A stretch of DNA of 64,000 bases from Corallococcus sp. AS-1-12. Lineage in GTDB: Bacteria > Myxococcota > Myxococcia > Myxococcales > Myxococcaceae. Below the pieces are notes generated by a model, which saw only the letters and a list, made by a program, of their open reading frames with translations, made no database searches and was not told the origin of the DNA. Positions 14,275 through 35,151 of this stretch are shown here, in pieces. The stretch lies in NCBI RefSeq assembly GCF_020036995.1, contig NZ_JAIQDD010000010.1, positions 97,433 to 161,432 on the forward strand, in the 5' to 3' direction. Position 1 is the first letter of the stretch; every line of letters starts with the position of its first letter. The position numbers and the translations under genes are program-made.

Positions 14275-14978
14275 TGCCCGCGCGCAAGCTCTACTTCGAA
14301 TCCATCCGCGTCGGTGACGAGCTGCCGGCGCTGGCCAAGGCCCCGGTGGACCGCGTCCAGTTGTCGCGCTACGCGGGCGCCTCCGGCGACTACAACCCCG
14401 TGCACGTGGACGAGCTCTACGCCAAGAGCGTGGGCATGCCGTCCGTCTACGCCCCCGGCATGCTCGTCATGGGTATGTTGGGCCAGCTCATCAGCGACTG
14501 GGCCCGGGGCGGCCAGCTCCGGCGCTACAATGTCCGCTTCATCAAGATGGTGTGGCCGGGCGACACCGTGGTCTGCAAGGGCCGCGTGAGCGACCGCCAC
14601 GGCTCCGGCGGCCGGTACTTCGTGGAAATCGACCTCTGGGCGGAGAACCAGAAGGGCGAGCTCGTCATGAAGGGCGGCTCGCAGATCCAGCTCTTCTACT
14701 CCCTGGAGGACGAGAACCGGCAGCGCTCCGGCCAGTCCCCCATCGTGGTGGAGGTCCCCCGCGAGAGCCTGGTCGTCCCGGCGCCCGCCACCCCGGAAGC
14801 CGCTACCAGCGCCCCGGCGCCCGCCGCCCCGGAGCGCGACCGGGACGAGGACGACGAGGACGATGACGAGGAGTCGGGCGAGCCCCGCTCCGGCGCCTCG
14901 TCCAAGAAGACCGCGCCCCGGGAGAAGCCCGCCGCGAAGACAGCGTCCCTCCCGGCCGCGAAGAAGGCCAGGAAGTAG
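14274..14978 (+). CDS. MaoC-like (R)-specific enoyl-CoA hydratase/dehydratase with acidic/lysine-rich C-terminal tail
   Basis: MaoC motif (YAGASGDYNPVHVDELYAKSVGMPSVYAPGML). About 80 aa disordered D/E/K-rich tail. Confidence 0.8.
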   Translation: MPARKLYFESIRVGDELPALAKAPVDRVQLSRYAGASGDYNPVHVDELYAKSVGMPSVYAPGMLVMGMLGQLISDWARGGQLRRYNVRFIKMVWPGDTVVCKGRVSDRHGSGGRYFVEIDLWAENQKGELVMKGGSQIQLFYSLEDENRQRSGQSPIVVEVPRESLVVPAPATPEAATSAPAPAAPERDRDEDDEDDDEESGEPRSGASSKKTAPREKPAAKTASLPAAKKARK

Positions 14979-18315: not shown

Positions 18316-19146
18316 ATGAACCGCGCAGCCGCCGCAATCTTCCTGGCCCTCCTCTGTTCGGCCTGCCCCAAACGTCTCGAGTTCGGTCCGGAGGGCCGCA
18401 TCGAGGACGCCCAGACGCTCTACCAGCACGTGCGCGAGCGGCAGGCGAAGGTGGTGAACCTGGAGGGCGACGCCAAGCTCCACGTGGACTCCCCGCAGGG
18501 CAGCGGCACGCTCTCCACCTATCTCTCCATCACCCGCCCGGCCCTCATCCACCTGGAGACGTACGACTTCTTCAACCGCCCGGTGGCCTCGCTCGTCTCC
18601 GACGGTGAGCGCTTCGGCATCTACCAGGCGCGGGAGAACACGTACCTCCAGGGCCCCGCGAGCGCGGAGAACGTGTCCCGCTTCCTGCCCGTCGTCCTGC
18701 CGAGCGAGGAGCTGGTGGCGGTGATGCTGGGCCAGGTCCCCCTCCTGCCGCCGGAGTCCATGACCCTGGAGCTGGACGAGAAGGAGCGGGTCTACGTGCT
18801 CAAGCTCCAGCGGGGGCCGGCGACACAGACACTGCGCGTGGACCCCAAGCACCTGCGCGTGGTGAAGAGCGAGGTCCGGGGCGTGCCGGGCTACGACCTG
18901 GCGTTCGAGGACTTCCAGCAGCGGGGCGACCAGTTCTTCCCGGACAAGGTGCACCTCATCGCCGCCTCGGCGGACACGAAGCTGGACCTGAAGTACACGG
19001 ACATCCGCCTCAACGGCCGCCCGGACCTGACGCTCTATGAAATGGGCGCGCCCGAGGGGGCGAAGGTGGTGGACGTCGACGCGCGGGGCCAGGAGGTCCG
19101 CCCGGAAGGGGCGGTGTCGCAGCCGCCCCCTGCGCCGGGTTCCTGA
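18316..19146 (+). CDS. lipoprotein, LolB/DUF4292-like (uncertain)
   Basis: Signal peptide plus lipobox (FLALLCSAC). Function is not assignable from motifs. Confidence 0.55.
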   Translation: MNRAAAAIFLALLCSACPKRLEFGPEGRIEDAQTLYQHVRERQAKVVNLEGDAKLHVDSPQGSGTLSTYLSITRPALIHLETYDFFNRPVASLVSDGERFGIYQARENTYLQGPASAENVSRFLPVVLPSEELVAVMLGQVPLLPPESMTLELDEKERVYVLKLQRGPATQTLRVDPKHLRVVKSEVRGVPGYDLAFEDFQQRGDQFFPDKVHLIAASADTKLDLKYTDIRLNGRPDLTLYEMGAPEGAKVVDVDARGQEVRPEGAVSQPPPAPGS

Positions 19147-19205
19147 GCTTCCAGGCGTCGAAAGGCAGCGTCCCGGCGCAAACCGGGTACTATGGCGCGC
19201 ACGAC

Positions 19206-19955
19206 ATGGCACAGATCAAGCTTGGAGAACTGCTGATCAAGGCGAACGTCCTGCAGGAGAGCCAGCTCAAGGCGGCGCTCGCCGAGCAGGCCAAGTGGGG
19301 CGGGAAGCTGGGCGAGATCCTCGTCCGGATGAACCTCGTCTCCGAGGACATCCTCGTGCGCGCCCTGTCGAAACAGTTGGGCATGCCGGCGGTGAACCTG
19401 GACTCCGTGCAGATGGTGCCGCCGCACGTGAAGGCCAAGATTCCGGCGCAGACGGCGCGCGACTTCTCCGTGGTGCCGCTGCAACTGCGCGACGACGGCA
19501 AGACGCTGGTCGTCGCCATGTCGGATCCGCTCAACGTGCGCGTGCTGGACGAGCTGCGCGCCCTGTCCAAGTGCCGCATCGTGGCCAACGTGGCCGGGCG
19601 CACCTCCGTGGCGCGGGCGTTCGCGCGCCTCTACGAGGAGACGGCGGAGCTGGAGGACGCGGACACCAACTTCAAGGTGGTGGACGCCCAAGGCCGCACC
19701 GTCGTGAAGAACCTCAAGGACCTGGACCCGGCCGCCGCCGTCGCCATGTCCCCCAAGCCCGCCGCCGCTCCGCCGCCCCGTCAGGCCCCTCCGCCGGAGG
19801 CGCCGCGCGCGGCCTCGGGCAGCCCCGCGGAGCTGCTCAAGAGCGTGGAGGAGGTCCAGCGCAAGGAGGTCGCGGCGCTGAAGGCCATGGTGGAGCTGCT
19901 CATCGAGAAGGGCGTTTTCTCCCGCGAGGAATACCTCGCCAAGGTCAAGCGGTAG
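19206..19955 (+). CDS. MshEN / GspE-N-terminal domain protein (predicted c-di-GMP receptor)
   Basis: Tandem MshEN motifs (KLGELLIKANVLQESQLKAALAEQ...KLGEILVRMNLVSEDILVRALSKQ). No ATPase domain. Confidence 0.75.
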   Translation: MAQIKLGELLIKANVLQESQLKAALAEQAKWGGKLGEILVRMNLVSEDILVRALSKQLGMPAVNLDSVQMVPPHVKAKIPAQTARDFSVVPLQLRDDGKTLVVAMSDPLNVRVLDELRALSKCRIVANVAGRTSVARAFARLYEETAELEDADTNFKVVDAQGRTVVKNLKDLDPAAAVAMSPKPAAAPPPRQAPPPEAPRAASGSPAELLKSVEEVQRKEVAALKAMVELLIEKGVFSREEYLAKVKR

Positions 19956-24140: not shown

Positions 24141-25558
24141 ATGCCCAGAATGCCCACGCGCACGAGGACCGGCTCCTCGACTTCGCCTACGGCGAGCTCC
24201 CCGCGTCGGAGGCCCACGCGCTGGAGCAGCACGTCCAGGGCTGCGCGCGCTGCACGAAGGCGCTGGCGGACATCCGCGGCGTGCGCACCGCCATGGCGCA
24301 GTTGTCCTCGGAGCCCGCGCCGGACGCGGGCCTGGAGTCGCTGCTCGCGTACGCGCAGCAGTCCGCGCGCCGCGCCGCCGCCGGCCCCGAGCCGAAGCCC
24401 TCGCGCTGGCGCCGCTTCCTCTTGCCCGCGGTGGGCCTGGCCACGGTGGGCACCTTCGGCCTCCTGACGTTGACGGTGCGCGAGAACCTCGACCTGTCGC
24501 CGAACCTGTCACAGCGGGCCGCCCCCAGCGCGGCGATGGAGGCGGCGAAGGTCGCCCCCGTCGCCCCGGCCCCCGCGCCGTCGAGCGCGCCCCTCGAAGG
24601 GGACGCACCCGAGGGCGGCTCGGAGGCCCTGGCGGCCGCGCCGGGCGCGATGGAGCTCAACCGCAATCAGATGGAGACCAAGGCCCAGCGCAAGGGCACC
24701 GCCGCGGCCCGCCCGTCGGACTGGATGAACGCGGGCAGCGGGGGCGCGCTGCTGGAGCGCCGCGCGGACGCGGAGGCTCCGAAGAAGAAGGTGGCCAAGG
24801 CCGTCCGGGACGCGGACGGCGAGTTCGCCGCGCTCGAGCCGCCTCCGGCCGCGCTGGAGGCGCCGTCGAAGGAAGCGGAGGCCCATGACAGCTTCCTCGC
24901 GAAGGACGAGCCCGCGCGGGGGCGCGCCTCGGCCAAGGTCAGCGACAAGGCGCTGGCCACGAAGGGCGACTCCCTCCGGTTGGGTGAGGCGGCCTATGGC
25001 CGTGGGCTCGTCTCGGATGACGCAGAGGACACGTCCGCGAGCGCGCCTCCGCCGCCGCCTCCTCCCGTTGCCTCCGCGCCCGTGGTGCAGGCCGTGCCCA
25101 TGGCCCCCGCGAGCGTGGGCTCCATCGGCGGTGCGTCGCCGCCGTCCACGCGCGCTCCCGCCGCGCCCAAGGAGGAGTCCGCCCGGGCCGAGGCCGCGAA
25201 GCCCGCTCCCATGGAGAAGTCCGCGTCCCAGGAGGCGATGACGGCGCGCGACCTGTCCGCCCAGGCCCAGGCCGCCGCGAACCAGGGTGACCGCGCCCGG
25301 GAGGCACGGCTGCTGCGCGCCGCGCTCGCGGCCGGAGCCAGCGGCAGCGAGAGGCTGGCCCTGCTCTCACGGCTCTGCGAGTCCGAGTCCGCCCAGGGCC
25401 GGACCCGGGAGGCCGCCGCCGTCTGCGGGCAGATCATCAAGGAGGCCCCCGGCTCCAGCGCGGCGCAGCTCGCCCAGCGCCGCCTGCGTCAGGCCTCGCC
25501 CCCCACGGCGCCGGCGTCCGCGCCGGCCAAGGCCGCTCCTTCCCAGCCCGCGCAGTAG
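24137..25558 (+). CDS. anti-sigma factor (zf-HC2 N-terminus, single TM, long Ala/Pro-rich periplasmic domain)
   Basis: ATGA overlap with the sigma gene. HxxxC...CxxC zinc-finger anti-sigma motif (HALEQHVQGCARCTKAL). TM segment (FLLPAVGLATVGTFGLLTLTV). Confidence 0.75.
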   Translation: MNAQNAHAHEDRLLDFAYGELPASEAHALEQHVQGCARCTKALADIRGVRTAMAQLSSEPAPDAGLESLLAYAQQSARRAAAGPEPKPSRWRRFLLPAVGLATVGTFGLLTLTVRENLDLSPNLSQRAAPSAAMEAAKVAPVAPAPAPSSAPLEGDAPEGGSEALAAAPGAMELNRNQMETKAQRKGTAAARPSDWMNAGSGGALLERRADAEAPKKKVAKAVRDADGEFAALEPPPAALEAPSKEAEAHDSFLAKDEPARGRASAKVSDKALATKGDSLRLGEAAYGRGLVSDDAEDTSASAPPPPPPPVASAPVVQAVPMAPASVGSIGGASPPSTRAPAAPKEESARAEAAKPAPMEKSASQEAMTARDLSAQAQAAANQGDRAREARLLRAALAAGASGSERLALLSRLCESESAQGRTREAAAVCGQIIKEAPGSSAAQLAQRRLRQASPPTAPASAPAKAAPSQPAQ

Positions 25559-25576
25559 GGAAGGGCGGCAGTCCAC

Positions 25577-25879
25577 ATGACCGATGCGGCCGGGGCCCGG
25601 GTCCTGGATAATGGGGACATGACGTCGGACGTGCACGCTCCCCCCGTGAACAGCCCCCGGAAGTCGCCGCCGCGCTCCCCGCGCCGGGCCCGCCGTGGCC
25701 AGGCCATGGTGGAGTACTCGATGATCAACTGGGTGTTGATCGTCGGGCTCGTCATCGGCGCCACGGTGAAGATCCGCTGGACGGACGACCGGCAGACCAA
25801 CGTCATCGACCTGTTCCTCGAGGCGTATCAGATTTATTACGACTCGTTTTACTTCGTGCTGAACCTGCCGTTCCCCTGA
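25577..25879 (+). CDS. candidate Flp/Fap-family prepilin
   Basis: GXXXXEY Flp processing motif (G-QAMV-EY) followed by a hydrophobic stretch (SMINWVLIVGLVIGATV). The predicted mature part is short (~57 aa). It lies immediately upstream of cpaB-tadB-tadC. Confidence 0.5.
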   Translation: MTDAAGARVLDNGDMTSDVHAPPVNSPRKSPPRSPRRARRGQAMVEYSMINWVLIVGLVIGATVKIRWTDDRQTNVIDLFLEAYQIYYDSFYFVLNLPFP

Positions 25880-25991
25880 GGGACGCCAGGGCCGCGGATC
25901 AACCCGCTGCGTCGAGCCGTCCTCCCCCTGGGCGGGCAGGCTCCGTGAGCGCTGGAGGTCCCGGGATTCCGCTTTGTCACGAGAGGTGGTT

Positions 25992-26021
25992 TTGACACCC
26001 GATGTGGGGCATGGCTAACAT
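25992..26021 (+). promoter_or_regulatory. sigma-70-like promoter candidate upstream of cpaB
   Basis: TTGACA, an 18-nt spacer, then TAACAT, located ~90 nt upstream of the CpaB start. Confidence 0.3.
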
Positions 26022-26111
26022 CTTGCTCCGTTCGCGCCCTGGCATCGCCCCCTCGTCCAAAGCAGTCCTGCCGCCACGACGGCGCCCCACCGTTCTGGAG
26101 GACCTTGAACC

Positions 26112-26930
26112 ATGTTGAAGGGTAAGACCCCGCTCGTCGTCGCACTGGTGCTCGGTTTGCTCGCGGGCATCGTGGCCTACTCGGCCATCAAGAAGAAGGA
26201 ATCGGATGTGCGCCGCGGGTGGAACCTGGTGCCCGTGGTGGTGGCGGGCCAGGACATGCCCGAGGGTTCGGTCATCACGTACGAGATGATCTCCCAGCGC
26301 TCCGTGCCGGAGCAGTTCGTCACCTCGTCGGTGGTGAAGCCGGACTCCGCCAACTACATCGTGAACCAGAAGGTGCTGGTGGCGCTGCAGGCCGGCGACC
26401 CCATCCTCTGGAGCCAGTTCGAGACGACGAAGGCCGCCGAGCGCCTGTCCACGAAGGTGCAGAAGAAGGCGCGCGCCATCACCATCGAGGCGAAGCAGAC
26501 CACGTCCGTGGGCGGGTGGATCCGCCCGAACGATCACGTGGACATCATCGGCACGTTCCGCGATCCGCAGACGGACGAGAGCGTCGCGGTGACGCTGCTG
26601 CAGAACATCATCGTGGTCGCCACGGGCAAGATCACCGGCACCACGAACATCAACCTCATCCCGGAGAACCAGCGCGAGTACTCCAACGTCTCGCTGATGG
26701 TGCTGCCGGAAGAGGCGGAGATCCTGGTGCTGGCGGCGGAGCTGGGGCAGTTGACCCTGTCCCTGCGCAACGAGGACGACGTGGACCTCATCGAGGAGCG
26801 TGGCCGCGCGACCATCAGCACGCTGCTCTCCGGTGAGCGCACCCGCGTGCTGGAGCAGAAGCGCCGGGAGATCATCCAGATCATCAAGGGCAGTGGCGGC
26901 GGCGAGAAGGCCTCGGCCGGAGCTCCGTAG
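26112..26930 (+). CDS. cpaB: Flp pilus assembly protein CpaB/RcpC homolog
   Basis: N-terminal TM (LVVALVLGLLAGIVAY) plus an SAF/CpaB periplasmic domain. Confidence 0.85.
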   Translation: MLKGKTPLVVALVLGLLAGIVAYSAIKKKESDVRRGWNLVPVVVAGQDMPEGSVITYEMISQRSVPEQFVTSSVVKPDSANYIVNQKVLVALQAGDPILWSQFETTKAAERLSTKVQKKARAITIEAKQTTSVGGWIRPNDHVDIIGTFRDPQTDESVAVTLLQNIIVVATGKITGTTNINLIPENQREYSNVSLMVLPEEAEILVLAAELGQLTLSLRNEDDVDLIEERGRATISTLLSGERTRVLEQKRREIIQIIKGSGGGEKASAGAP

Positions 26931-26942
26931 TCGTCGCGCGCG

Positions 26943-26971
26943 GGGCCGCTTCGCCAACGCTGAAGCGGCCC
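26943..26971 (+). other. intercistronic stem-loop between cpaB and tadB
   Basis: Perfect 10-bp stem GGGCCGCTTC/GAAGCGGCCC with a 9-nt loop and no U-tract. Confidence 0.4.
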
Positions 26972-27008
26972 TGCCGACCCCTCCCTCATCCCCCGGGGAT
27001 TCGCGCCC

Positions 27009-27854
27009 ATGCTCGCAGGTATCGTCCTCCTTCTCGTCACCGGCTCGGTGTTCTTCTTCAGCCTGGTGATCTTCAGCGTCCTGTCGAAGGCGTATGAGCA
27101 GTACCAGGAGCGCTACGTCGCCAAGTCGATGAACGACTTGAGCGACATGTTCCTCTTCATCGACGCGCGGCAGATGTTGATCCTCAACATCGCCTGCATG
27201 TGCCTTCTGGGCATCCTCAGCTACATCATCTTCAACCCCATCCTGGCGGTGCTCGCGACCATCTTCGGCTTCTTCCTGCCGATGCTGCTCGTGAAGCACT
27301 ACCGCAAGCGCCGCATCAAGAAGTTCAACGTGCAGTTGGTGGACGCGCTGCAGGCCATGGCCAACGCGTTCAAGGCGGGCCTCACGTTCCCGCAGGCCAT
27401 CGAGCACGTGGCGCGCGAGGCGCTGCCGCCCCTGTCCCAGGAGTTCGGCCTCTTCGTGAAGGAAGTGAAGCTGGGCGTGCCGCTGGAGGAGGCGCTCATC
27501 AACATGGGCCGCCGCGTGGGCAGCGACGACCTGGAGCTGGTGGTGGTGTCCACCAACATCGCGCGCCAGTTGGGCGGCAACATGGCGGAGATGTTCGAGA
27601 CCATCTCCACGGTGATCCGCGAGCGCTTCCGTCTGGAAGGCAAGATCGACGCGCTGACGTCCCAGGGCAAGCTTCAAGGCTGGATCGTGGCGGCCATGCC
27701 GGCGGTGCTGGGCATGGTGCTCAACTACATGCGTCCGGACCTGATGGAGCCGATGATGAACCACATCTTCGGCTACATCCTGGTGACCCTGATCGCCATC
27801 ATGGAGATCATGGGCATCCTCATCATCCGGCGCATCGTCAACATCGACATCTGA
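27009..27854 (+). CDS. tadB: TadB-like platform protein (T2SS-F/GspF family)
   Basis: T2SSF-type domain with 3 TM segments (GLTFPQAIEHVAREALPPLSQEFG...). Confidence 0.8.
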   Translation: MLAGIVLLLVTGSVFFFSLVIFSVLSKAYEQYQERYVAKSMNDLSDMFLFIDARQMLILNIACMCLLGILSYIIFNPILAVLATIFGFFLPMLLVKHYRKRRIKKFNVQLVDALQAMANAFKAGLTFPQAIEHVAREALPPLSQEFGLFVKEVKLGVPLEEALINMGRRVGSDDLELVVVSTNIARQLGGNMAEMFETISTVIRERFRLEGKIDALTSQGKLQGWIVAAMPAVLGMVLNYMRPDLMEPMMNHIFGYILVTLIAIMEIMGILIIRRIVNIDI

Positions 27855-27867
27855 AGCGAGGCGCACC

Positions 27868-28758
27868 GTGCAGGAAGTCCTGACATTTCTGCTGATGGGC
27901 GGCTCGGCACTGCTGACCGCGGGCGCGGTGGCGTTCCTGGGCATCGGCCTGTACACCAACCTCCTGGAGCGCTTCCTCACGGAAGTCCGCGACGAGTCCG
28001 CGGGCGGCATGAAGGGCGCGGGCTCCGTCGCCATCCGCAAGCTGGGCGCGATGAACCGGCGCTTCATGTGGCCGGGCTACGAGTCCAAGACGCGCCGCAA
28101 GCTGATCAAGGCGGGCGAGCCGTCCCAGTACAAGCCCGAGGACATCATGGCGCTGCAGGAGGTGAGCGCCTTCCTGGGCCTGCTGGTGGGCCTGTTCGTC
28201 GCCAACGGCATCGGGGCGAACCTGGCGTGGTCGCTGCTGGTGATGCTGCTGGGCCTGTTCTATCCGCTCATCTGGTTGAACGACCAGGTGAAGCGCCGTC
28301 ACCTGGCCATCAGCCGCGCGCTTCCGTACAACCTGGACCTGCTGACGCTGTCGGTGGAAGCGGGCATGGACTTCACGGGCGCGCTGGCGAAGGTGGTGGA
28401 GAAGGGCCGCCAGGGGCCGCTGCGCGAGGAGCTGCAGTTGGTGCTCAAGCAGCTCAAGATGGGCAAGACGCGTGAAGAGGCGCTCAAGGGCATGATCGTG
28501 CGCGTGGACCTGCCGTCGCTGACGACGTTCGTCACGGCGCTGATCCAGGCGGACAAGATGGGCACGAGCCTGGGCAAGGTGCTGCGCATCCAGTCCACGC
28601 AGATGCGCATCGACCGCACGCAGCGCGCGGAGAAGCTGGCGGGTGAGGCACCGGTGAAGATGCTCTTCCCGCTCATCGCGTGCATCTTCCCGACGGTGTT
28701 CATGGTGCTCTTCGGGCCCATCGTGTTCCAGTTCATGTTCGGCAACGTCGGGGGCTAG
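27868..28758 (+). CDS. tadC: TadC-like platform protein (T2SS-F/GspF family)
   Basis: T2SSF-type domain (LPYNLDLLTLSVEAGMDFTGALAKVVEKG). Confidence 0.8.
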   Translation: MQEVLTFLLMGGSALLTAGAVAFLGIGLYTNLLERFLTEVRDESAGGMKGAGSVAIRKLGAMNRRFMWPGYESKTRRKLIKAGEPSQYKPEDIMALQEVSAFLGLLVGLFVANGIGANLAWSLLVMLLGLFYPLIWLNDQVKRRHLAISRALPYNLDLLTLSVEAGMDFTGALAKVVEKGRQGPLREELQLVLKQLKMGKTREEALKGMIVRVDLPSLTTFVTALIQADKMGTSLGKVLRIQSTQMRIDRTQRAEKLAGEAPVKMLFPLIACIFPTVFMVLFGPIVFQFMFGNVGG

Positions 28759-28831
28759 TCCTCTGCCCATCCTGCTCACCATCACCCAGGGGCTCCAGGT
28801 TGGACGGGAGCTCGCCTTCGAGCAGGCCGAA

Positions 28832-31663
28832 GTGAAGATCGGCCGGACCTCGGAGAACGACCTGGTCCTGCATGACCACGGTGTCTCCCGGCGTCATGCC
28901 CGCATCACGGCGAGGGATGGGCGTTACTTCGCCGAGGACGTTGGCAGCGCGAACGGCACGCAGTTGAACGGCCAGCCGCTGGGCGGCCAGAAGCAACTGC
29001 GCGACGGCGACCGCATCACCGTGGGGCCGGTGGAGTTCACCTTCGTGTGGGTGGCGCCGGAGGATGACGACGACGTCACCCGGCCCATCCGGCGGATGCT
29101 CGCGCCGCCGCACGCGAAGGTGTCGCCGCAGGGCGTGGAGCAGGCCTCGCTCGCGGAGATCGAAGCGGCGCCCACGAGCTACCAGCCGTCGATGCCGGCC
29201 ATGGCCCGGCCCGCGTCCCCGCCGCGCCCGGGAATGGCCGTGCCCGCCGCGAAGGGTGGGGCGATGCCAATGCCGGCCGCCACGCCGAAGCGGCCCTCCG
29301 CTCCGGATCTACCGGCGGTCAGTGCCTCCGCGCCGGGCCGGGCTGCACCGGGAACTCCCGTGCTGGGAACGCCCACGCCGGGGGCGGCGGCTTCGCCCAA
29401 GCCTGGTGTGCAGGGAGCCTCTGTTCCGGCGACTCCGCCCCGGCCTCCCTCGGGTCCGCCTGCGCTGGGCGCCTCTGCGTCCTCTGCTTCGGGCAAGGTT
29501 CCCGCCGCGCCTTCCGTGGTGGGGAGCCTGGGGCAGGGCGCGACCGCGCCGGCCAGGACTCCCGCGGGCCCTCCGGTGTTGGGTCCCGCGGCTCCCAACG
29601 AGGGTTCCCCGGCCAGGGCTCCTGCTGCTCCCCCGGTGCTGTCGGCCGGGAACAAGGCCTCGGGAGCTTCCGCCGCCGTCCGTGCCTCCGGGCCGGGACC
29701 GTCCTTGGCGGCCCGGGGCGCAGCGGCTTCGTCACCCGGCCTGCCGTTGATGTCTCCGCCGGGGCTGATGGTTCCGCCTCCTCCCGCACGGCCTCTCGCC
29801 GTGCCTCCTCCCGTGGAGCTGGCCCCCGTGGCGCCGGACGAGCCCGAGGAGCGCACGCTGATGGCGATCTCCACGGTGGACTCGCCCGTGCCCGCCGCCA
29901 CGCCGCCTCCCGTGCTGTCCCTCCCGGACATGGACGAGCCCGAGGAGCGCACGCTGATGGCGATCTCCACGGTGGACTCGCGCGTGCCCGCCGCCGCGCC
30001 GCCTCCCGTGCTGCCTCTCCCGGAGCTGGACGAGCCCAACGAGAGCACGCTGATGGCGATTCCCACGGCGGACCTGGCCGTGCCCGCCGCCACGCCGCCC
30101 CCGGTGCTCTCCTTCCCGGAGCTGGACGAGCCCGAGGAGCGCACGCTGATGGCGATTCCGGCGACCCCGGAAGCGCCACCGGTTCCCGTCGCGCCGCCGC
30201 CGCAGGAGGCCCCGCCCGCGCTGCCCCCGCCGGCGATGGAGGAGCCCGAGGAGCGGACCGTCCTCGACCTCCGGCCCATCACGCCGGTCAAGCCGCTCGT
30301 GGCCCCTCCGGTGCGCATCGTGAGCGCGCCCGCCGCCGCGATCGACTCCAGCGAGCCCTCGACCTTCGTCGGCCAGGACGATGACCTCTCCGCGGCCCCC
30401 GAGGAGACCCGGGCCTCCGGGACCTTCTCGGGCCAGGTCTCGCCCGGACCTGCCGCACCGGCCGCGGCGCCTCCGCCGGTCTGGAGCCCTCCCGTCCCGC
30501 CGCCTTCCGAGGAGCCGGTGACGTTCGTCGGCCACGACCGCGCCCCGCCTGCCCCGGCCCTGGACCCCGGGCTGCTGACGGGCGAAATCCCACTGCTGGC
30601 CCATGTGCCCGCTCCGGACGCGGAGGGTGAAGCCACCCTGCCCGTGCCGGCCAACCTGGATGAGTCCGCCACCCAGCCCGCGCCAAGGGGCCCGGTGACG
30701 GTCGTCGCGAAGGTCGAGCCCTCGTCCGCCGCCGACAAGGCCCGCCAGCGGCGCCAGTTGGGCAAGACGCTCAAGGGCCGGTTCCTCCTCTTCTGGCAGC
30801 GCCAGTCGCTGCCCAGGCGCATCGGCTTCGCGTCGCTGGCGGGCGTGGCCGTGCTGGGCGTGCTGACGCTGCTCGTGGCGCTCGCGGCCCCCTCGGCCAT
30901 CCGGCTCCCGGGCCGCGAACCCTTCACGCTGGGCATGGAGCCGGTGCCGGACTCCTTCGGCCTGGGCGAAGGGGTGCGCTGGGTCCACGCCGACGACAAG
31001 CTCTTCGACTTCCGCTTCGTGTCCCCCACGCGCGCCGTGGCGGTGCTGCACTACCAGGCCAGCAACATCGCCCGGGACGAGGTCAACCTGTCCCTCAACG
31101 GCGTGTCCCTGGGCTGGGTGCCCCCGGATACCGCCCAGACGGCCGAGCGTGAGCTGGAGCAGGTCCTCCCGCCCAGCCTCCTGCGGCGCAACGCCAACAA
31201 CCAGCTCCTCTTCGACAACGCCCTCAACCCGCCCGGCCGCGACCCCTGGCGCATCTGGAACCTGCGGCTGGAGATCATCCCGGTGCCGGAGCTGCCGCCG
31301 GATCAGCTCATCACCTCCGCCCGGGAGGCCGCCAAGGCAGGGGCCCGCTTCTACGAGCTCAAGGACGTGGGCGCGGAGAACCTGTTCAAGGCGTGGCGGG
31401 AGTACCGCGCCGCGTGGATCACCCTGGAAGCGCTGGACGACAAGCCGGAGCTCTACGAGGACGTCCGGGAGCGGATCGCCCAGATTTCAACGGAGCTGGA
31501 CCACCGCTGCAGCCAACTGATGATGCAGTTCCAGCGGGCGGTTCAGTTCCGCAGCCGACGGGATGCGGTCGCCACCCTGGAAGACGTACGGAGACGCTTC
31601 CCTACGGCCGAGCATCGCTGCCACAATCTCGCGCTGGAAAAAGCCTATGAGCACGAGCTTTAG
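28832..31663 (+). CDS. FHA-domain protein, large proline-rich, with internal 32-aa tandem repeats
   Basis: FHA core (IGRTSENDLVLHDHGVSRRHARI...ANGTQLNGQPL). The first canonical start (GTG 28832) would truncate the FHA beta1 strand, which is encoded in-frame upstream (PILLTITQGLQVGRELAFEQAE). The true start is likely non-canonical at ~28763-28769. Confidence 0.8.
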   Translation: MKIGRTSENDLVLHDHGVSRRHARITARDGRYFAEDVGSANGTQLNGQPLGGQKQLRDGDRITVGPVEFTFVWVAPEDDDDVTRPIRRMLAPPHAKVSPQGVEQASLAEIEAAPTSYQPSMPAMARPASPPRPGMAVPAAKGGAMPMPAATPKRPSAPDLPAVSASAPGRAAPGTPVLGTPTPGAAASPKPGVQGASVPATPPRPPSGPPALGASASSASGKVPAAPSVVGSLGQGATAPARTPAGPPVLGPAAPNEGSPARAPAAPPVLSAGNKASGASAAVRASGPGPSLAARGAAASSPGLPLMSPPGLMVPPPPARPLAVPPPVELAPVAPDEPEERTLMAISTVDSPVPAATPPPVLSLPDMDEPEERTLMAISTVDSRVPAAAPPPVLPLPELDEPNESTLMAIPTADLAVPAATPPPVLSFPELDEPEERTLMAIPATPEAPPVPVAPPPQEAPPALPPPAMEEPEERTVLDLRPITPVKPLVAPPVRIVSAPAAAIDSSEPSTFVGQDDDLSAAPEETRASGTFSGQVSPGPAAPAAAPPPVWSPPVPPPSEEPVTFVGHDRAPPAPALDPGLLTGEIPLLAHVPAPDAEGEATLPVPANLDESATQPAPRGPVTVVAKVEPSSAADKARQRRQLGKTLKGRFLLFWQRQSLPRRIGFASLAGVAVLGVLTLLVALAAPSAIRLPGREPFTLGMEPVPDSFGLGEGVRWVHADDKLFDFRFVSPTRAVAVLHYQASNIARDEVNLSLNGVSLGWVPPDTAQTAERELEQVLPPSLLRRNANNQLLFDNALNPPGRDPWRIWNLRLEIIPVPELPPDQLITSAREAAKAGARFYELKDVGAENLFKAWREYRAAWITLEALDDKPELYEDVRERIAQISTELDHRCSQLMMQFQRAVQFRSRRDAVATLEDVRRRFPTAEHRCHNLALEKAYEHEL
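29837..30220 (+). repeat. 4 (+1 partial) tandem 96-bp coding repeats inside the FHA gene
   Basis: Unit gacgagcccgaggagcgcacgctgatggcgatctccacggtggactcg... encodes EPEERTLMAISTVDSPVPAATPPPVLSLPDMD. Units start at 29837, 29933, 30029 and 30125. Confidence 0.8.
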
Positions 31664-31690
31664 GGCTCGTGCCCCCCTCAGCAGGACGCG

Positions 31691-33439
31691 GTGACCTCCA
31701 TGTCGAACGCACCACCCCCCGCCCGCCGACGGCCTACATCTGGCACGCCCTCCTCCGGGACCGGTTCGCGCGCGCCGGTCCGCCGGTCGTCCGCCGGTGC
31801 CGCCGCGGCCCGCCCCGCGAAGCTCGTCGTCATCGCCGGCCCCATGGAGGGTGAGGAGTTCGCGCTCTCCGAGCTCGAGTACACGGTCGGCCGCTCCACC
31901 GACAACCCCATCTGCATCCAGGACACGTCCGTCTCCCGCAAGCACGTGACGCTGCGCAAGGAGTCCGCCGGCTGGATGGTCAGTGACATGGGCTCCGGCA
32001 ACGGCACCATCGTCAACGGCGAGCCCATCTCCGAGGAGACGCTCCTCGCCAACGGCGACGTCATCACGCTGGGCGACTCGGAGCTGCGCTACGAGGACAC
32101 CGCCAACAGCACCGCGAAGGTGCAGGCCCCCACCGGCCCCCGGCCCCGTCCATCCTCGGCGGCGGGCCGCGGTTCCACGGCCGTGCCCCCGCGCCCCGCC
32201 CGCGAGGGCCGCGCGCGCCCGCAGACGTCGCGGGCCGCCGCCGCCGCGGAGCTCTCGCCGGAGGTGCAGCGCAAGCGCATGCGGATGAAGCTCGCGGGCG
32301 CCGCCGTGCTGGTGGTGCTCTTCGCGGGCCTGGGCGTCGCGCGCTCGCGCATGCGGCAACAGGCGGAGGAGCAGGGCCGCATCGAGGCGGAGCAGCGCAG
32401 CTACCGCGAGCAGTTGGGCGGCCTCTTCCAGGAGGCGAAGAACCTGGTGCGCGAGGGCCAGTGGCAGCAGGCCAAGGCGAAGCTGGAGGAGCTCCACGCG
32501 CAGGCGCCGGACTACCCCGGCGTGGCGGACTACCTGAAGGCCGCGGAGCGGGAGATCCCCAACCAGAACCACCTGAGCACGGCCCAGGCGGCGCTGGACA
32601 AGGGCCAGTTGGCCAGCGCGAAGGCGTCCATCGAGAAGGTGACCAGCGACACCCAGCTCTACGAGCAGTTGAAGACGGCGCGCAAGAACCTGACGGACGC
32701 CGCCGACACGCGCACGAAGGAGGCCAAGCGGCTGCTGGACACCCGCCAGTTGGAGAACGTGCAGCAGGCCAAGGCCATCACCGACGACGTGCTCGCGACC
32801 TTCCCCGAGCACCGCGACGGCAAGCTGGTCAACGACGACGCCGTGCGCGTCATCGCGGACCTGACGCGTCCGGACCCCGTGCGCGTGGCCGCGGCGCCCA
32901 AGCCGTGGGAGCCCGCCGTGGACCGCTTCCGCGACGGTGACATCACCGGCGCGGTGGCCATCCTCAACGCGTGCGCGGCCAAGACGTCCCAGTGCAAGCA
33001 GTTGATGGCGCAGGTGACGGAGTTCGGCAACCTCTACAAGAAGCTGGAGGACCTGGACGCCAAGGGCCTCACCCGCCTGCTCGCGCTGGACAAGGACATC
33101 ACCGACGGGCGCGCCAGCAAGATGGCGCGCAACGCGGGCACCCGCGCGGGCAACATCTATTACAAGAGCGCCGCGGGCGCGAAGGCCGCCGGCCAGTGGT
33201 CGCGCGCCATGGAGTTCGCCCGCCGCGCGCTCCAGGCGGACCCCAGCCACGCGGGCGCCGCCAACATCGTCAACGACCTCAAGGGCAAGGCGAAGGACCT
33301 GTACATGCAGGCCTACTCCATCAAGGACTCCAGCCCGGAGGACGCGCTGCCCAAGTTCCGCGACGTCGTCGCGATGACGCCGCCCGACGACGAGCTGCAC
33401 GGCAAGGCCCAGGGCTGGGTCGAGAAGCTGTCGCGATGA
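31691..33439 (+). CDS. FHA-domain protein with TM segment and C-terminal TPR-like helical domain
   Basis: FHA core (YTVGRSTDNPICIQDTSVSRKHVTL...SGNGTIVNGEPI). TM segment (LAGAAVLVVLFAGLGVA). The stop overlaps the xseA start (ATGA). Confidence 0.85.
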   Translation: MTSMSNAPPPARRRPTSGTPSSGTGSRAPVRRSSAGAAAARPAKLVVIAGPMEGEEFALSELEYTVGRSTDNPICIQDTSVSRKHVTLRKESAGWMVSDMGSGNGTIVNGEPISEETLLANGDVITLGDSELRYEDTANSTAKVQAPTGPRPRPSSAAGRGSTAVPPRPAREGRARPQTSRAAAAAELSPEVQRKRMRMKLAGAAVLVVLFAGLGVARSRMRQQAEEQGRIEAEQRSYREQLGGLFQEAKNLVREGQWQQAKAKLEELHAQAPDYPGVADYLKAAEREIPNQNHLSTAQAALDKGQLASAKASIEKVTSDTQLYEQLKTARKNLTDAADTRTKEAKRLLDTRQLENVQQAKAITDDVLATFPEHRDGKLVNDDAVRVIADLTRPDPVRVAAAPKPWEPAVDRFRDGDITGAVAILNACAAKTSQCKQLMAQVTEFGNLYKKLEDLDAKGLTRLLALDKDITDGRASKMARNAGTRAGNIYYKSAAGAKAAGQWSRAMEFARRALQADPSHAGAANIVNDLKGKAKDLYMQAYSIKDSSPEDALPKFRDVVAMTPPDDELHGKAQGWVEKLSR

Positions 33440-35151
33440 AGAAGCGCAAGGGGTTGGAGCCGCCCCCGGCCGACGAGCCGGGGCAGGGCGACCTGTTCGG
33501 CACGTCGCTGCTACCCCCCTTGCGTCCCGCGCCGGCGAAGGCCGCCAGCGGAGGCAGGCCGCCCCCGGCCCCGCCCACCGCGCCGGTGGCTGAAGTCGCC
33601 GCGCCGCCGCCGCCCGCCGCAGTCACCCCGCCGCCGCGCCCCGAGCGCACGGTGCTGTCGGTGGGCGAGCTCACCCGGCAGATCAAGCAGACGGTGGAGT
33701 CGCGCTTCCCGCGCGTGATGGTGCGCGGCGAGGTGTCCAGCTTCCGGGGCGCCAACGCGCGCGGCCACTGGTACTTCACGCTCAAGGACCCGGACGCCTC
33801 CATCGACGCGAAGGTGTGGGCGTCCATGGCCAGCCGCATCCGCTTCGCGCTGCGCGACGGCATGGAGGTCGTGGCCGAGGGCAGCGTGGACCTGTACGAG
33901 CCGCAGGGCCGCTACAGCCTCATCGTGTCCCGGCTGGAGCCGGTGGGCGAGGGCGCGCTGGCGCTCGCGTTCGAGCAGCTCAAGCAGCGGCTGGCGGCGG
34001 AGGGGCTCATCGGCGACCGGCGCGTGCGGCCGCCCCGGCCCGTGCCGTTCCTGCCCCGGCGCATCGGCGTCGTGACGAGCCGCACCGGCGCGGCGCTCCA
34101 GGACTTCCTGCGCGTGCTGCACTCGCGCAACCCCCGGCTGGGCGTGCTGCTGGCGGACGCGCGCGTGCAGGGGGAGGGCTCCGCGGAGGACGTGGCGCGG
34201 GCCATCGAGCGGCTCTCGCGCACCGACGTGGACGTCATCGTCGTGACGCGCGGCGGAGGCTCCGTGGAGGACCTCTGGACGTTCAACGAGGAGCGGGTGG
34301 CGCGCGCCATCTTCGCCTCGCCCGTGCCGGTGGTGTCCGCCATCGGCCACGAGATCGACTTCACCATCTCCGACTTCGTCGCGGACCTGCGCGCGCCCAC
34401 GCCCAGCGCGGCGGCGGAGCGGCTGGCGCCGGTGCTGGCGGACCTGGAGCTGACGCTGGCCACGCAGTCCGGCCGGCTGCGCCGGGCCATGGAGCGCCGG
34501 GTGCTGGAGCTGCGCGAGCGCCAGGGCCAGCTCCGCGCGCGGCTGCCGGACCCTCGCCGCGAGGTGAACCACCAGCGCCTGCACCTGTCCGAACAGGTGG
34601 AGGCGATGATGCGCGTGCTGCGCCCCCGCGTGCGTCAGGACCGGGAGACCTTGCGCGCCTTGCAGGAGCGGCTGCAGCGGGCGCGGCCCCAGACGCGGCT
34701 GTCGGAGCAGCGGGCGCACCTGCTCAAGCTGGCCATGCGCCTGTCGGACGCCGCTCGTGCGGGCGTCACCCGGCGGCGGGGCGCGCTGGCGGACGCGCGG
34801 CTGGGGCTGGAGCGGCAGTCCCCCACGGCGCGGGTGGCGGCCGAGCGGGCGAAGGTGGCCCAGGCGCGAGCGCGGCTCCTGGAGCTCCAGCGGGGAATGC
34901 TGGCCTCCGCGCAGACGCACTTCGGACGGCTGGGCGGCCGCCTGGACGCCCTGAGCCCCCTGAAGGTGATGTCGCGCGGCTACGCGGTGACGTTCCGCCA
35001 GCGGGACGGCGTGGTGGTCCGCTCCATGGCGGACGTGGTGGTGGGGGACGTGCTGGGCATCAAGCTGGCGGCCCACGGGGCGAAAACCCTGGGTGGATGT
35101 GAAGAAATCGAAGCGACCGTTACCAGCCTGAAAGGCCCGGTGGACTGCTAG
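33436..35151 (+). CDS. xseA: exodeoxyribonuclease VII large subunit
   Basis: OB-fold N-terminus (LSVGELTRQIKQTVESRFPRVMVRGEVSSF) and an XseA catalytic region (GVVTSRTGAALQDFLRVL; VVTRGGGSVEDLWTFN). Confidence 0.9.
   Translation: MKKRKGLEPPPADEPGQGDLFGTSLLPPLRPAPAKAASGGRPPPAPPTAPVAEVAAPPPPAAVTPPPRPERTVLSVGELTRQIKQTVESRFPRVMVRGEVSSFRGANARGHWYFTLKDPDASIDAKVWASMASRIRFALRDGMEVVAEGSVDLYEPQGRYSLIVSRLEPVGEGALALAFEQLKQRLAAEGLIGDRRVRPPRPVPFLPRRIGVVTSRTGAALQDFLRVLHSRNPRLGVLLADARVQGEGSAEDVARAIERLSRTDVDVIVVTRGGGSVEDLWTFNEERVARAIFASPVPVVSAIGHEIDFTISDFVADLRAPTPSAAAERLAPVLADLELTLATQSGRLRRAMERRVLELRERQGQLRARLPDPRREVNHQRLHLSEQVEAMMRVLRPRVRQDRETLRALQERLQRARPQTRLSEQRAHLLKLAMRLSDAARAGVTRRRGALADARLGLERQSPTARVAAERAKVAQARARLLELQRGMLASAQTHFGRLGGRLDALSPLKVMSRGYAVTFRQRDGVVVRSMADVVVGDVLGIKLAAHGAKTLGGCEEIEATVTSLKGPVDC

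Follow-up and report, generated by a model that had tools for sequence, protein, structure and literature searches.

In a 64,000-nt stretch of the Corallococcus sp. AS-1-12 genome (positions 97,433 to 161,432 of contig NZ_JAIQDD010000010.1; hereafter the window, numbered from its first letter), a gene for an FHA-domain protein lies directly after a tadC-like gene and has no canonical start codon ahead of its FHA domain. Our analysis makes it likely that this gene is intact, that it is initiated at the CTG codon 28763..28765, and that its translation is probably coupled to that of tadC, a kilH homolog. A preliminary description of the same DNA offered three explanations for the missing start: non-canonical initiation, a sequencing error, or a programmed event at the tadC/FHA junction. 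The comparative data presented below favor the first of them and speak against the other two.

Direct reading and translation of the sequence bear out the basic observation. In the FHA frame, the last upstream stop is TGA 28655-28657, located inside the tadC coding sequence, and the codons of 28658-28831 include no ATG, GTG, or TTG. The first canonical in-frame start is GTG 28832..28834, which would open a reading frame at 28832..31663; this codon encodes Val24, an internal residue of strand beta3. The tadC stop codon was correctly placed, TAG occupying 28756..28758, 4 nt before the CTG. Immediately upstream of it, a GGGGG run at 28750..28754 resembles a Shine-Dalgarno (SD) element and also encodes the C-terminal Gly-Gly of TadC. 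The run is present as described; its distance to the CTG, given earlier as 9 nt, is 8 nt when counted from the last G (28754) to C 28763. Codons 1-23 (28763..28831; LPILLTITQGLQVGRELAFEQAE) encode beta1-beta2 of the FHA fold and lie 5' of the first canonical start. They contain two ATC codons of relevance: Ile3 at 28769, two codons 3' of the CTG, and Ile7 at 28781..28783. All features given here are on the forward strand.

For the comparison of start codons, 66 loci were fetched from contigs representing one genome per species and anchored on the IGR motif or by tblastn, and 55 loci, including the window, were usable. The codon aligned with 28763 is CTG in 38 loci, GTG in 9, ATG in 7, and TTG in one, and nothing else is found there; the other leucine codons (CTC, CTT, and TTA) occur at this position in 0 of the 55. 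Nearby leucine columns have a different composition: CTC 36, CTG 15, TTG 1, and CTT 1 in column 5; CTC 33 and CTG 8 in column 11; CTC 35 and CTT 6 in column 17. CTG is carried by all Corallococcus, Citreicoccus, and Pyxidicoccus loci, several Myxococcus species, most Archangium and Vitiosangium loci, and several metagenome-assembled genomes (MAGs). GTG occurs in the M. xanthus group and in loci L018 and L047, TTG in L049, and ATG in a distant clade of MAGs. Initiation at CTG 28763 is supported jointly by the ATG, GTG, or TTG that orthologs have in its place, by a coding signal that sets in at this codon, and by the well-spaced G-run.

In 11 CTG-start loci (L017, L021, L023, L025, L026, L029, L036, L043, L048, L058, and L061), an in-frame stop is located only 6-24 nt upstream of the CTG. 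Downstream, most Archangium-type loci (Archangium, Vitiosangium, and related MAGs) have their next canonical in-frame start at codon 34 or later, and L048 has it at codon 48. Even the codon 34 start falls past the conserved Gly-Arg of the FHA core, and thus the CTG is the sole start in these genomes that gives an FHA domain. In a rough neighbor-joining tree of the first 104 residues, CTG loci are spread throughout the tadC-adjacent clade, where the start codon changed about three times, twice to GTG (in the M. xanthus group and in L018) and once to TTG (in L049), each time toward a canonical start. On this distribution, CTG appears to be not a lesion but a long-maintained state in most of the Myxococcus/Corallococcus/Pyxidicoccus/Archangium radiation, with GTG or TTG having replaced it in a few lineages.

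A start lost by mutation, or an error of sequencing or assembly, would make the gene a pseudogene or an artefact. Such an explanation would agree with the absence of a canonical start and with the annotation of several Corallococcus orthologs (P0014-P0016 and P0022-P0025) as proteins of ~580-730 residues without an FHA domain. It is effectively refuted. The 36-nt junction is identical across ~16 independently sequenced Corallococcus assemblies, complete chromosomes included (these loci comprise L001-L009, L041, L044, L045, L062, and the window), so a sequencing error is not the cause. The CTG is shared with species of Archangium, Pyxidicoccus, Citreicoccus, Vitiosangium, and Myxococcus, and the reading frames are intact and under purifying selection. 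Wherever a contig spans the whole gene, the open reading frame (ORF) extends for 484-1380 codons; values below this range are due to contig ends.

Every tadC-adjacent locus has a CTG, GTG, or TTG start. The seven ATG-start loci and L047 (GTG) have no tadC match within the fetched locus, and therefore the weak start codon appears to be associated with the tadC-adjacent context. The ATG-start loci L050-L056, from distant Myxococcaceae/Myxococcota MAGs, encode related FHA proteins with the same C-terminal domain (MGFQLVIAEGKEAGREF...). Their FHA gene begins at about position 4001 of the locus (4361 in L056), and in L050, the locus inspected more closely, it directly follows two PafC-HTH/WYL/WCX regulator genes. 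It probably represents a copy, paralogous or relocated, that lies outside the Kil cluster.

The coding signal changes at the same codon. The G+C content at third codon positions (GC3) separates the reading frames sharply in this DNA of 65-77% GC. For tadC it is 0.96 overall and 1.00 over the last 35 codons; in the tadC frame it stays at 1.00 up to 28755 and is 0.38 after 28758. In the FHA frame, GC3 is 0.46 for the 35 codons of 28658-28762, 0.87 for 28763-28831, and 0.88 for the rest of the gene. To judge from this jump, coding in the FHA frame starts at about 28763, neither earlier, as a long overlap or a fusion with tadC would have it, nor at 28832. Selection acts on the disputed segment as on the remainder of the domain. 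Between the window and C. terminator, codons 2-23 show 4 synonymous and 0 non-synonymous differences (Nei-Gojobori method). In other pairs, the ratio of non-synonymous to synonymous substitution rates (dN/dS) of these codons is 0.15-0.7, the same range as for codons 24-94. Both the FHA domain and the C-terminal domain are under purifying selection.

The residues encoded by 28763-28831 belong to the FHA fold, as the preliminary description had supposed when it assigned them to beta1/beta2. The Pfam FHA model (PF00498) scores 71.3 bits against a cut-off of 20.7, its match beginning only at residue 24. The model of the FHA-like cytoplasmic domain of YscD (Yop-YscD_cpl, PF16697) covers residues 7-95 at 65.1 bits (cut-off 33.2). 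A phmmer search against the PDB aligns residues 4-104 with the FHA domains of GarA and OdhI. In an AlphaFold2 model of residues 1-115, the mean predicted local distance difference test score (pLDDT) is 86, rising to 91 for residues 1-20, and beta strands are formed by residues 3-9, 16-19, and 23-27. Residues G27, R28, S42, H45, and N64 are invariant in the ortholog alignment. Since residues 1-23 are part of the fold, a start at Val24 would remove beta1 and beta2 and cut into beta3, which agrees with the truncation anticipated earlier for GTG 28832.

Initiation at GTG 28832 would yield such a truncated protein ('MKIGRTSEND...') and leave the conserved 69 nt upstream of it untranslated. This codon is the sole canonical start before the FHA core, gene callers have chosen it in many genomes (P0002, P0004, P0007-P0011, and P0013), and GTG occupies the Val24 column in 29 of 53 orthologs. 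In the other 24, however, the column holds GTC (12), ATC (8), GTT (2), GTA (1), or CTG (1), and in Archangium-type loci the first canonical start comes at codon 34 or later. A coding GC3 of 0.87 and dN/dS below 1 characterize the 23 upstream codons, which encode beta1-beta2 at a pLDDT of 91 in a segment that can be aligned to solved FHA domains. The SD energy before GTG 28832 is at the background level (-4.7 kcal/mol), and the orthologs with ATG or GTG starts begin 23 codons upstream. Orthologs that truly start at the VKIGR-equivalent position, which would have spoken for the short form, were not found: Archangium-type loci have no GTG there, and the ATG-start homologs begin at the codon equivalent to the CTG. 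We therefore regard initiation at GTG 28832 as quite improbable.

The ribosome-binding context was scored as the duplex energy of positions -20 to -3 with the 3' tail of the 16S rRNA. CTG 28763 has a value of -8.6 kcal/mol, which is reached by 6% of the positions in 26000-33000 (background mean -4.0) and is comparable with the reference starts of cpaB (-9.3), tadC (-8.6), and the second FHA gene at ATG 31700 (-8.8); the 8-nt spacer falls in the 5-10 nt range expected of an SD element. Most tadC-adjacent orthologs have a G-rich run before the start, although it is no more than GAGG in Pyxidicoccus and GGGG in loci that start with GTG. The run comes after the tadC stop in L017, L021, and L025; hence it is intergenic there and is not due to Gly-Gly coding. 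Anti-SD energies are -8.6 to -11.3 kcal/mol in most CTG lineages, -5.6 to -7.0 for the CTG of Pyxidicoccus, and -6.4 to -6.8 for the GTG of the M. xanthus group. The stronger SD accompanying CTG than GTG hints at compensation, a trend that is anecdotal given only about three independent transitions.

The CUG codon of the FHA gene might also be bypassed in favor of a near-cognate ATC, either 28769 (Ile3) or 28781 (Ile7), with a protein 2-6 residues shorter. In C. coralloides KYC2213, NCBI annotates the gene from the ATC that corresponds to 28781 (L069; 'MTQGLQ...'), and many RefSeq orthologs begin with MTQGLQ or MTKGLQ. In E. coli, AUC initiates at ~1-2% of the AUG level, similarly to CUG (bioRxiv 10.1101/063800). 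ATC 28769 is separated from the G-run by 14 nt and also scores -8.6 kcal/mol. Codon 3, however, is TTC or TTT (Phe) in 23 of 53 orthologs, including the Archangium-type ones, and is not conserved as a start. ATC or ATT at codon 7 is also present in orthologs with ATG or GTG at position 1, and its conservation is explained by the protein (beta1). ATC 28781 has no SD in range (+1.4 kcal/mol), and a start at Ile7 would lose most of beta1 (strand 3-9). The restriction to start-capable NTG codons is seen at position 1 only. Initiation at either ATC is thus improbable, although in Corallococcus alone ATC 28769 may contribute.

The spacing between the tadC stop and the FHA start is short throughout. 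It is +4 nt in the window and 3, 4, 5, 6, 9, 10, 11, or 16 nt in the tadC-adjacent orthologs; most have 3-10 nt, spacers of 11-16 nt occur in L015, L017, L021, and L025, and the two genes never overlap. Stop-start distances of -8 to +10 nt have been taken to predict termination-reinitiation, and coupling is steeply lost beyond ~13-20 nt (Huber et al. 2023, PMC10666635). The window pair is co-directional, and its +4 nt distance falls within this range. Coupling of the FHA gene to tadC/kilH is thus plausible from the gene arrangement. The RNA of 28723-28812 has a folding energy of -26.1 kcal/mol compared with -30.6 for shuffled sequences (z = +1.49), and is less folded, as expected of an initiation region. 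A regulatory RNA structure at the junction was considered and rejected on the same values. No internal promoter or terminator was found between tadC and the FHA gene.

These features suggest the following scheme for the CTG-initiated gene: (i) the CUG start would lie 8 nt 3' of the SD-like G-run and 4 nt 3' of the tadC/kilH stop, (ii) with the start so placed, initiation would probably draw mostly on ribosomes arriving from the end of tadC (translational coupling, or termination-reinitiation), (iii) the initiator tRNA would read CTG 28763 as formylmethionine, and (iv) the weak start codon would limit synthesis of the FHA protein to a low level that depends on the translation of tadC. We infer the decoding of CUG as a start in vivo, the contribution of coupling, and low, coupled expression as a selected property from the arrangement described above.

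Ribosomes that finish tadC could alternatively be recoded at its stop to yield a TadC-FHA fusion, either by a +1 frameshift at GGC-UAG similar to that of prfB or by readthrough where the frames coincide. The FHA frame of the window is indeed offset by +1 from that of tadC and contains no stop for 105 nt upstream, the SD-like G-run lies directly 5' of the stop, and one database protein (P0041) carries both T2SSF and FHA domains. The tadC:FHA spacers of 3-16 nt nevertheless cover all three phases. Because the frame relations 0, +1, and +2 all occur among species, there is no conserved frameshift or readthrough, and the programmed event envisaged in the preliminary description does not fit the comparative data. 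A fusion would not constrain codon 28763, yet this codon is limited to CTG, GTG, TTG, and ATG. A shift from GGC to GCU would allow no +1 re-pairing of the tRNA, to judge from the codons, and GC3 of the FHA frame 5' of 28763 is 0.46. We consider recoding very improbable. P0041 itself was rejected as a natural fusion. It corresponds to 3001-4728 of L067 (ENA ERZ25039572, contig_18739), which is out of frame through the 3' end of tadC and again inside the FHA domain (e.g., ...RAEKLAERGAGEDALPADRLHLPHG... and ...HDPVSPGVTCASS...), and it is an artefact of an indel-rich metagenome contig.

The public databases hold at least five kinds of N-terminus for this gene: the CTG read as Met ('MPILL...'), the ATC read as Met ('MTQG...'), the GTG 69 nt downstream ('MKIGR...'), an upstream GTG inside tadC ('MSSRRGSPLPILL...'), and an internal Leu codon ('MLTITQG...'). 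In Myxococcus sp. AM011, for instance, the NCBI annotation starts on the CTG (L068, 1201-1203). Annotators thus already resort to non-canonical starts, and do so inconsistently; the 'MKIGR' N-termini are annotation choices rather than evidence. The rare CTG start is the most likely explanation of this inconsistency. Several of the annotated N-termini lose part of the FHA domain, and the CTG/GTG start gives a consistent and complete domain for this Kil component.

The upstream GTG is found in L016 and L027, in frame within the 3' end of tadC and 24 nt (8 codons) before the CTG; it is limited to a few Myxococcus and Pyxidicoccus species, where RefSeq takes it as the first codon ('MSSRGDSPLPILL...', e.g., P0026 and P0028). 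Close relatives lack this GTG or have it in another frame (in L017 the codon is TGA), so it probably does not represent the conserved start. In the Corallococcus proteins P0014-P0016 and P0022-P0025, the annotated sequence (579-727 residues) begins in the Pro-rich linker and lacks the FHA domain, possibly because the start was called wrongly or because the repetitive, GC-rich linker contains frameshifts.

Several points weigh against a coupled CTG start. The N-terminus of the FHA protein is deduced from nucleotide data. CUG is a poor start in E. coli, at 1-2% of AUG (bioRxiv 10.1101/063800), CTG is the kind of Leu codon favored by a GC-rich genome, and the same G-run could also serve ATC 28769. 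Because the 38 CTG loci share ancestry, with about three changes in the tadC-adjacent clade, their count overstates their independence. The trend in SD strength likewise depends on very few transitions, and the Pyxidicoccus CTG loci are weaker. Coupling is deduced from spacing, and the 11-16 nt spacers of L015, L017, L021, and L025 fall in the range where the efficiency of reinitiation varies (PMC10666635).

A further possibility, which we put forward tentatively and consider doubtful, is that the CTG is a selected regulatory device: inefficient de novo initiation by 30S subunits would make the FHA/YscD-like scaffold dependent on ribosomes terminating on kilH. Preservation of CTG across many genera and a stronger SD in most CTG lineages than in GTG lineages are compatible with this idea, and do not prove it. 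If it holds, a sub-stoichiometric KilH:FHA ratio would be fixed for the Kil predation machine, and the FHA output could respond to IF3 levels and ribosome state, e.g., upon starvation or prey contact. The sister lineages with GTG or TTG at the same site provide a natural test case for whether weak starts persist to enforce coupling or stoichiometry. In practical terms, kilH deletions or tagged MXAN_4649 alleles constructed outside M. xanthus need to keep the G-run, the stop, and the CTG.

The FHA gene is the fourth in a co-directional block that is opened by a cpaB/rcpC-like gene, a kilB homolog (26112..26930; Pfam RcpC, 7e-23, and SAF). This gene is followed by the tadB-like platform gene, a kilG homolog (27009..27854; T2SSF, 1.1e-17), and the tadC-like platform gene, a kilH homolog (27868..28758; T2SSF, 1.9e-19), whose product ends with ...FGNVGG before the TAG. 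The FHA gene (28763..31663) comprises 966 codons plus the stop and matches FHA (9e-20) and Yop-YscD_cpl (7e-18). Downstream lies an FHA-TPR gene similar to MXAN_4648 (31700..33439; FHA, YscD, and TPR). This second FHA gene (31691/31700) does not share the anomaly: it begins with an ordinary ATG preceded by an SD, and GTG 31691 is also in frame. A sigma-70-like element at 25992-26021 (TTGACA, 18 nt, TAACAT; 10/12 consensus matches) is the sole match in 25400-33600 and lies ~90 nt 5' of the cpaB/kilB start. On its consensus match, it may be a candidate promoter of the kilB-kilG-kilH-FHA-FHA/TPR block.

In M. xanthus, Kil cluster 2 (MXAN_4648-4661) belongs to a Tad-like apparatus needed for contact-dependent prey killing (Seef et al. 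2021, PMC8460266). It includes KilB (MXAN_4652), KilG (4651), KilH (4650), the FHA protein (4649), and the FHA-TPR protein (4648) (PMC8460266, supplementary file 18). Comparison of Pfam assignments of the five window genes with that list shows the same order (CpaB/KilB, KilG, KilH, FHA, FHA-TPR). The window tadC is 83% identical by tblastn to its counterpart in M. xanthus AM003 (L039), a locus that is collinear. MXAN_4649 is described as an FHA-domain protein with a PrgH/YscD-like match, directly 3' of kilH, and the primer oss177 used for the kilH deletion ends with ...CGCCCC GTG CCC ATC CTC CT (PMC8460266). The oss177 junction is the same site as in the M. xanthus-group loci L039 and L037. 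Because of the shared gene order and this junction, the window gene can be assigned as the ortholog of MXAN_4649, with a putative role in predation; PMC8460266 does not establish what MXAN_4649 itself does.

The encoded protein consists of an FHA/YscD-like N-terminal domain, a Pro-rich repetitive linker, a predicted membrane segment, and a conserved C-terminal domain. Its nearest relative is P0001 of Corallococcus coralloides (97% identity). A 96-nt tandem repeat at 29836..30156 (3.3 copies, 88% matches), encoding DEPEERTLMAISTVDSP...PPPVL units, is located within the long Pro/Ala-rich linker. Copy number and linker length vary widely among orthologs, which have ~900-1080 residues in Corallococcus vs. 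~480-680 in Myxococcus and Archangium.

Elsewhere in the window, a crude GC3 scan found long ORFs with a high-GC3 signal 5' of the first canonical start at 14671-14863, 4980-5070, and 19041-19206 (forward strand). Overlaps, shadow frames, or additional non-canonical starts could account for them; the whole-window scan is noisy, dominated by antisense shadow ORFs in this DNA of 68% GC, and interpretable only with support from homologs.

The junction can be compared with several known systems. Within the Kil cluster, the gene order is the same, and both MXAN_4649 and the window protein combine an FHA/YscD-like N-terminal domain with a conserved C-terminal domain. They differ in two respects: M. 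xanthus has GTG at the start position, whereas the window and most other genera have CTG, and the Corallococcus protein is longer by ~300-600 residues owing to the expanded Pro-rich repeat linker.

The layout also recalls prfB, where an SD-like element just 5' of a stop codon accompanies a programmed +1 frameshift. In the window, the G-run likewise directly precedes the stop and the downstream ORF is in the +1 frame. In contrast to prfB, the junction lacks a slippery P-site codon, its frame relation varies among orthologs, and a start-capable codon is conserved instead.

A closer parallel is offered by termination-reinitiation gene pairs (Huber et al. 2019, PMC6728339; Huber et al. 2023, PMC10666635; review PMC12548453). 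As in these, the window genes are co-directional, they likely encode parts of one complex, and the SD falls within the upstream gene or at its end. The commonest pairs, however, have overlaps of -4 or -1 nt and canonical NTG starts, whereas the genes at the junction described here do not overlap and mostly start with CUG, and their coupling is predicted.

With regard to the start codon itself, initiation at CUG in E. coli reaches ~1-2% of the AUG level, and CTG appears now and then among annotated bacterial starts (Hecht et al., bioRxiv 10.1101/063800). Our search of the literature for CTG starts in Myxococcus found nothing relevant, and a broader search yielded little. Translation table 11 includes CTG among its alternative starts, and the near-cognate starts of bacteria include CUG, AUU, AUC, and AUA, e.g., the conserved AUU of E. 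coli infC and pcnB. The weak start codon of infC is maintained in evolution and is not accidental. The window CTG resembles these cases in being a single-base variant of AUG at a site where orthologs have canonical starts, with an SD-like element upstream, and resembles infC in that it, too, seems to be maintained rather than accidental. It differs from infC in the logic of control, since the AUU of infC is sensed by IF3 and no autoregulatory logic is known for the window gene. It differs from near-cognate starts in general by its conservation over several myxobacterial genera and its link to a position 3-16 nt after an upstream stop, as known here from sequence comparison. The FHA gene is thus a new instance of the known CUG initiation in bacteria that involves no new mechanism and is unusual mainly for the breadth of its conservation and its fixed place after a stop codon.

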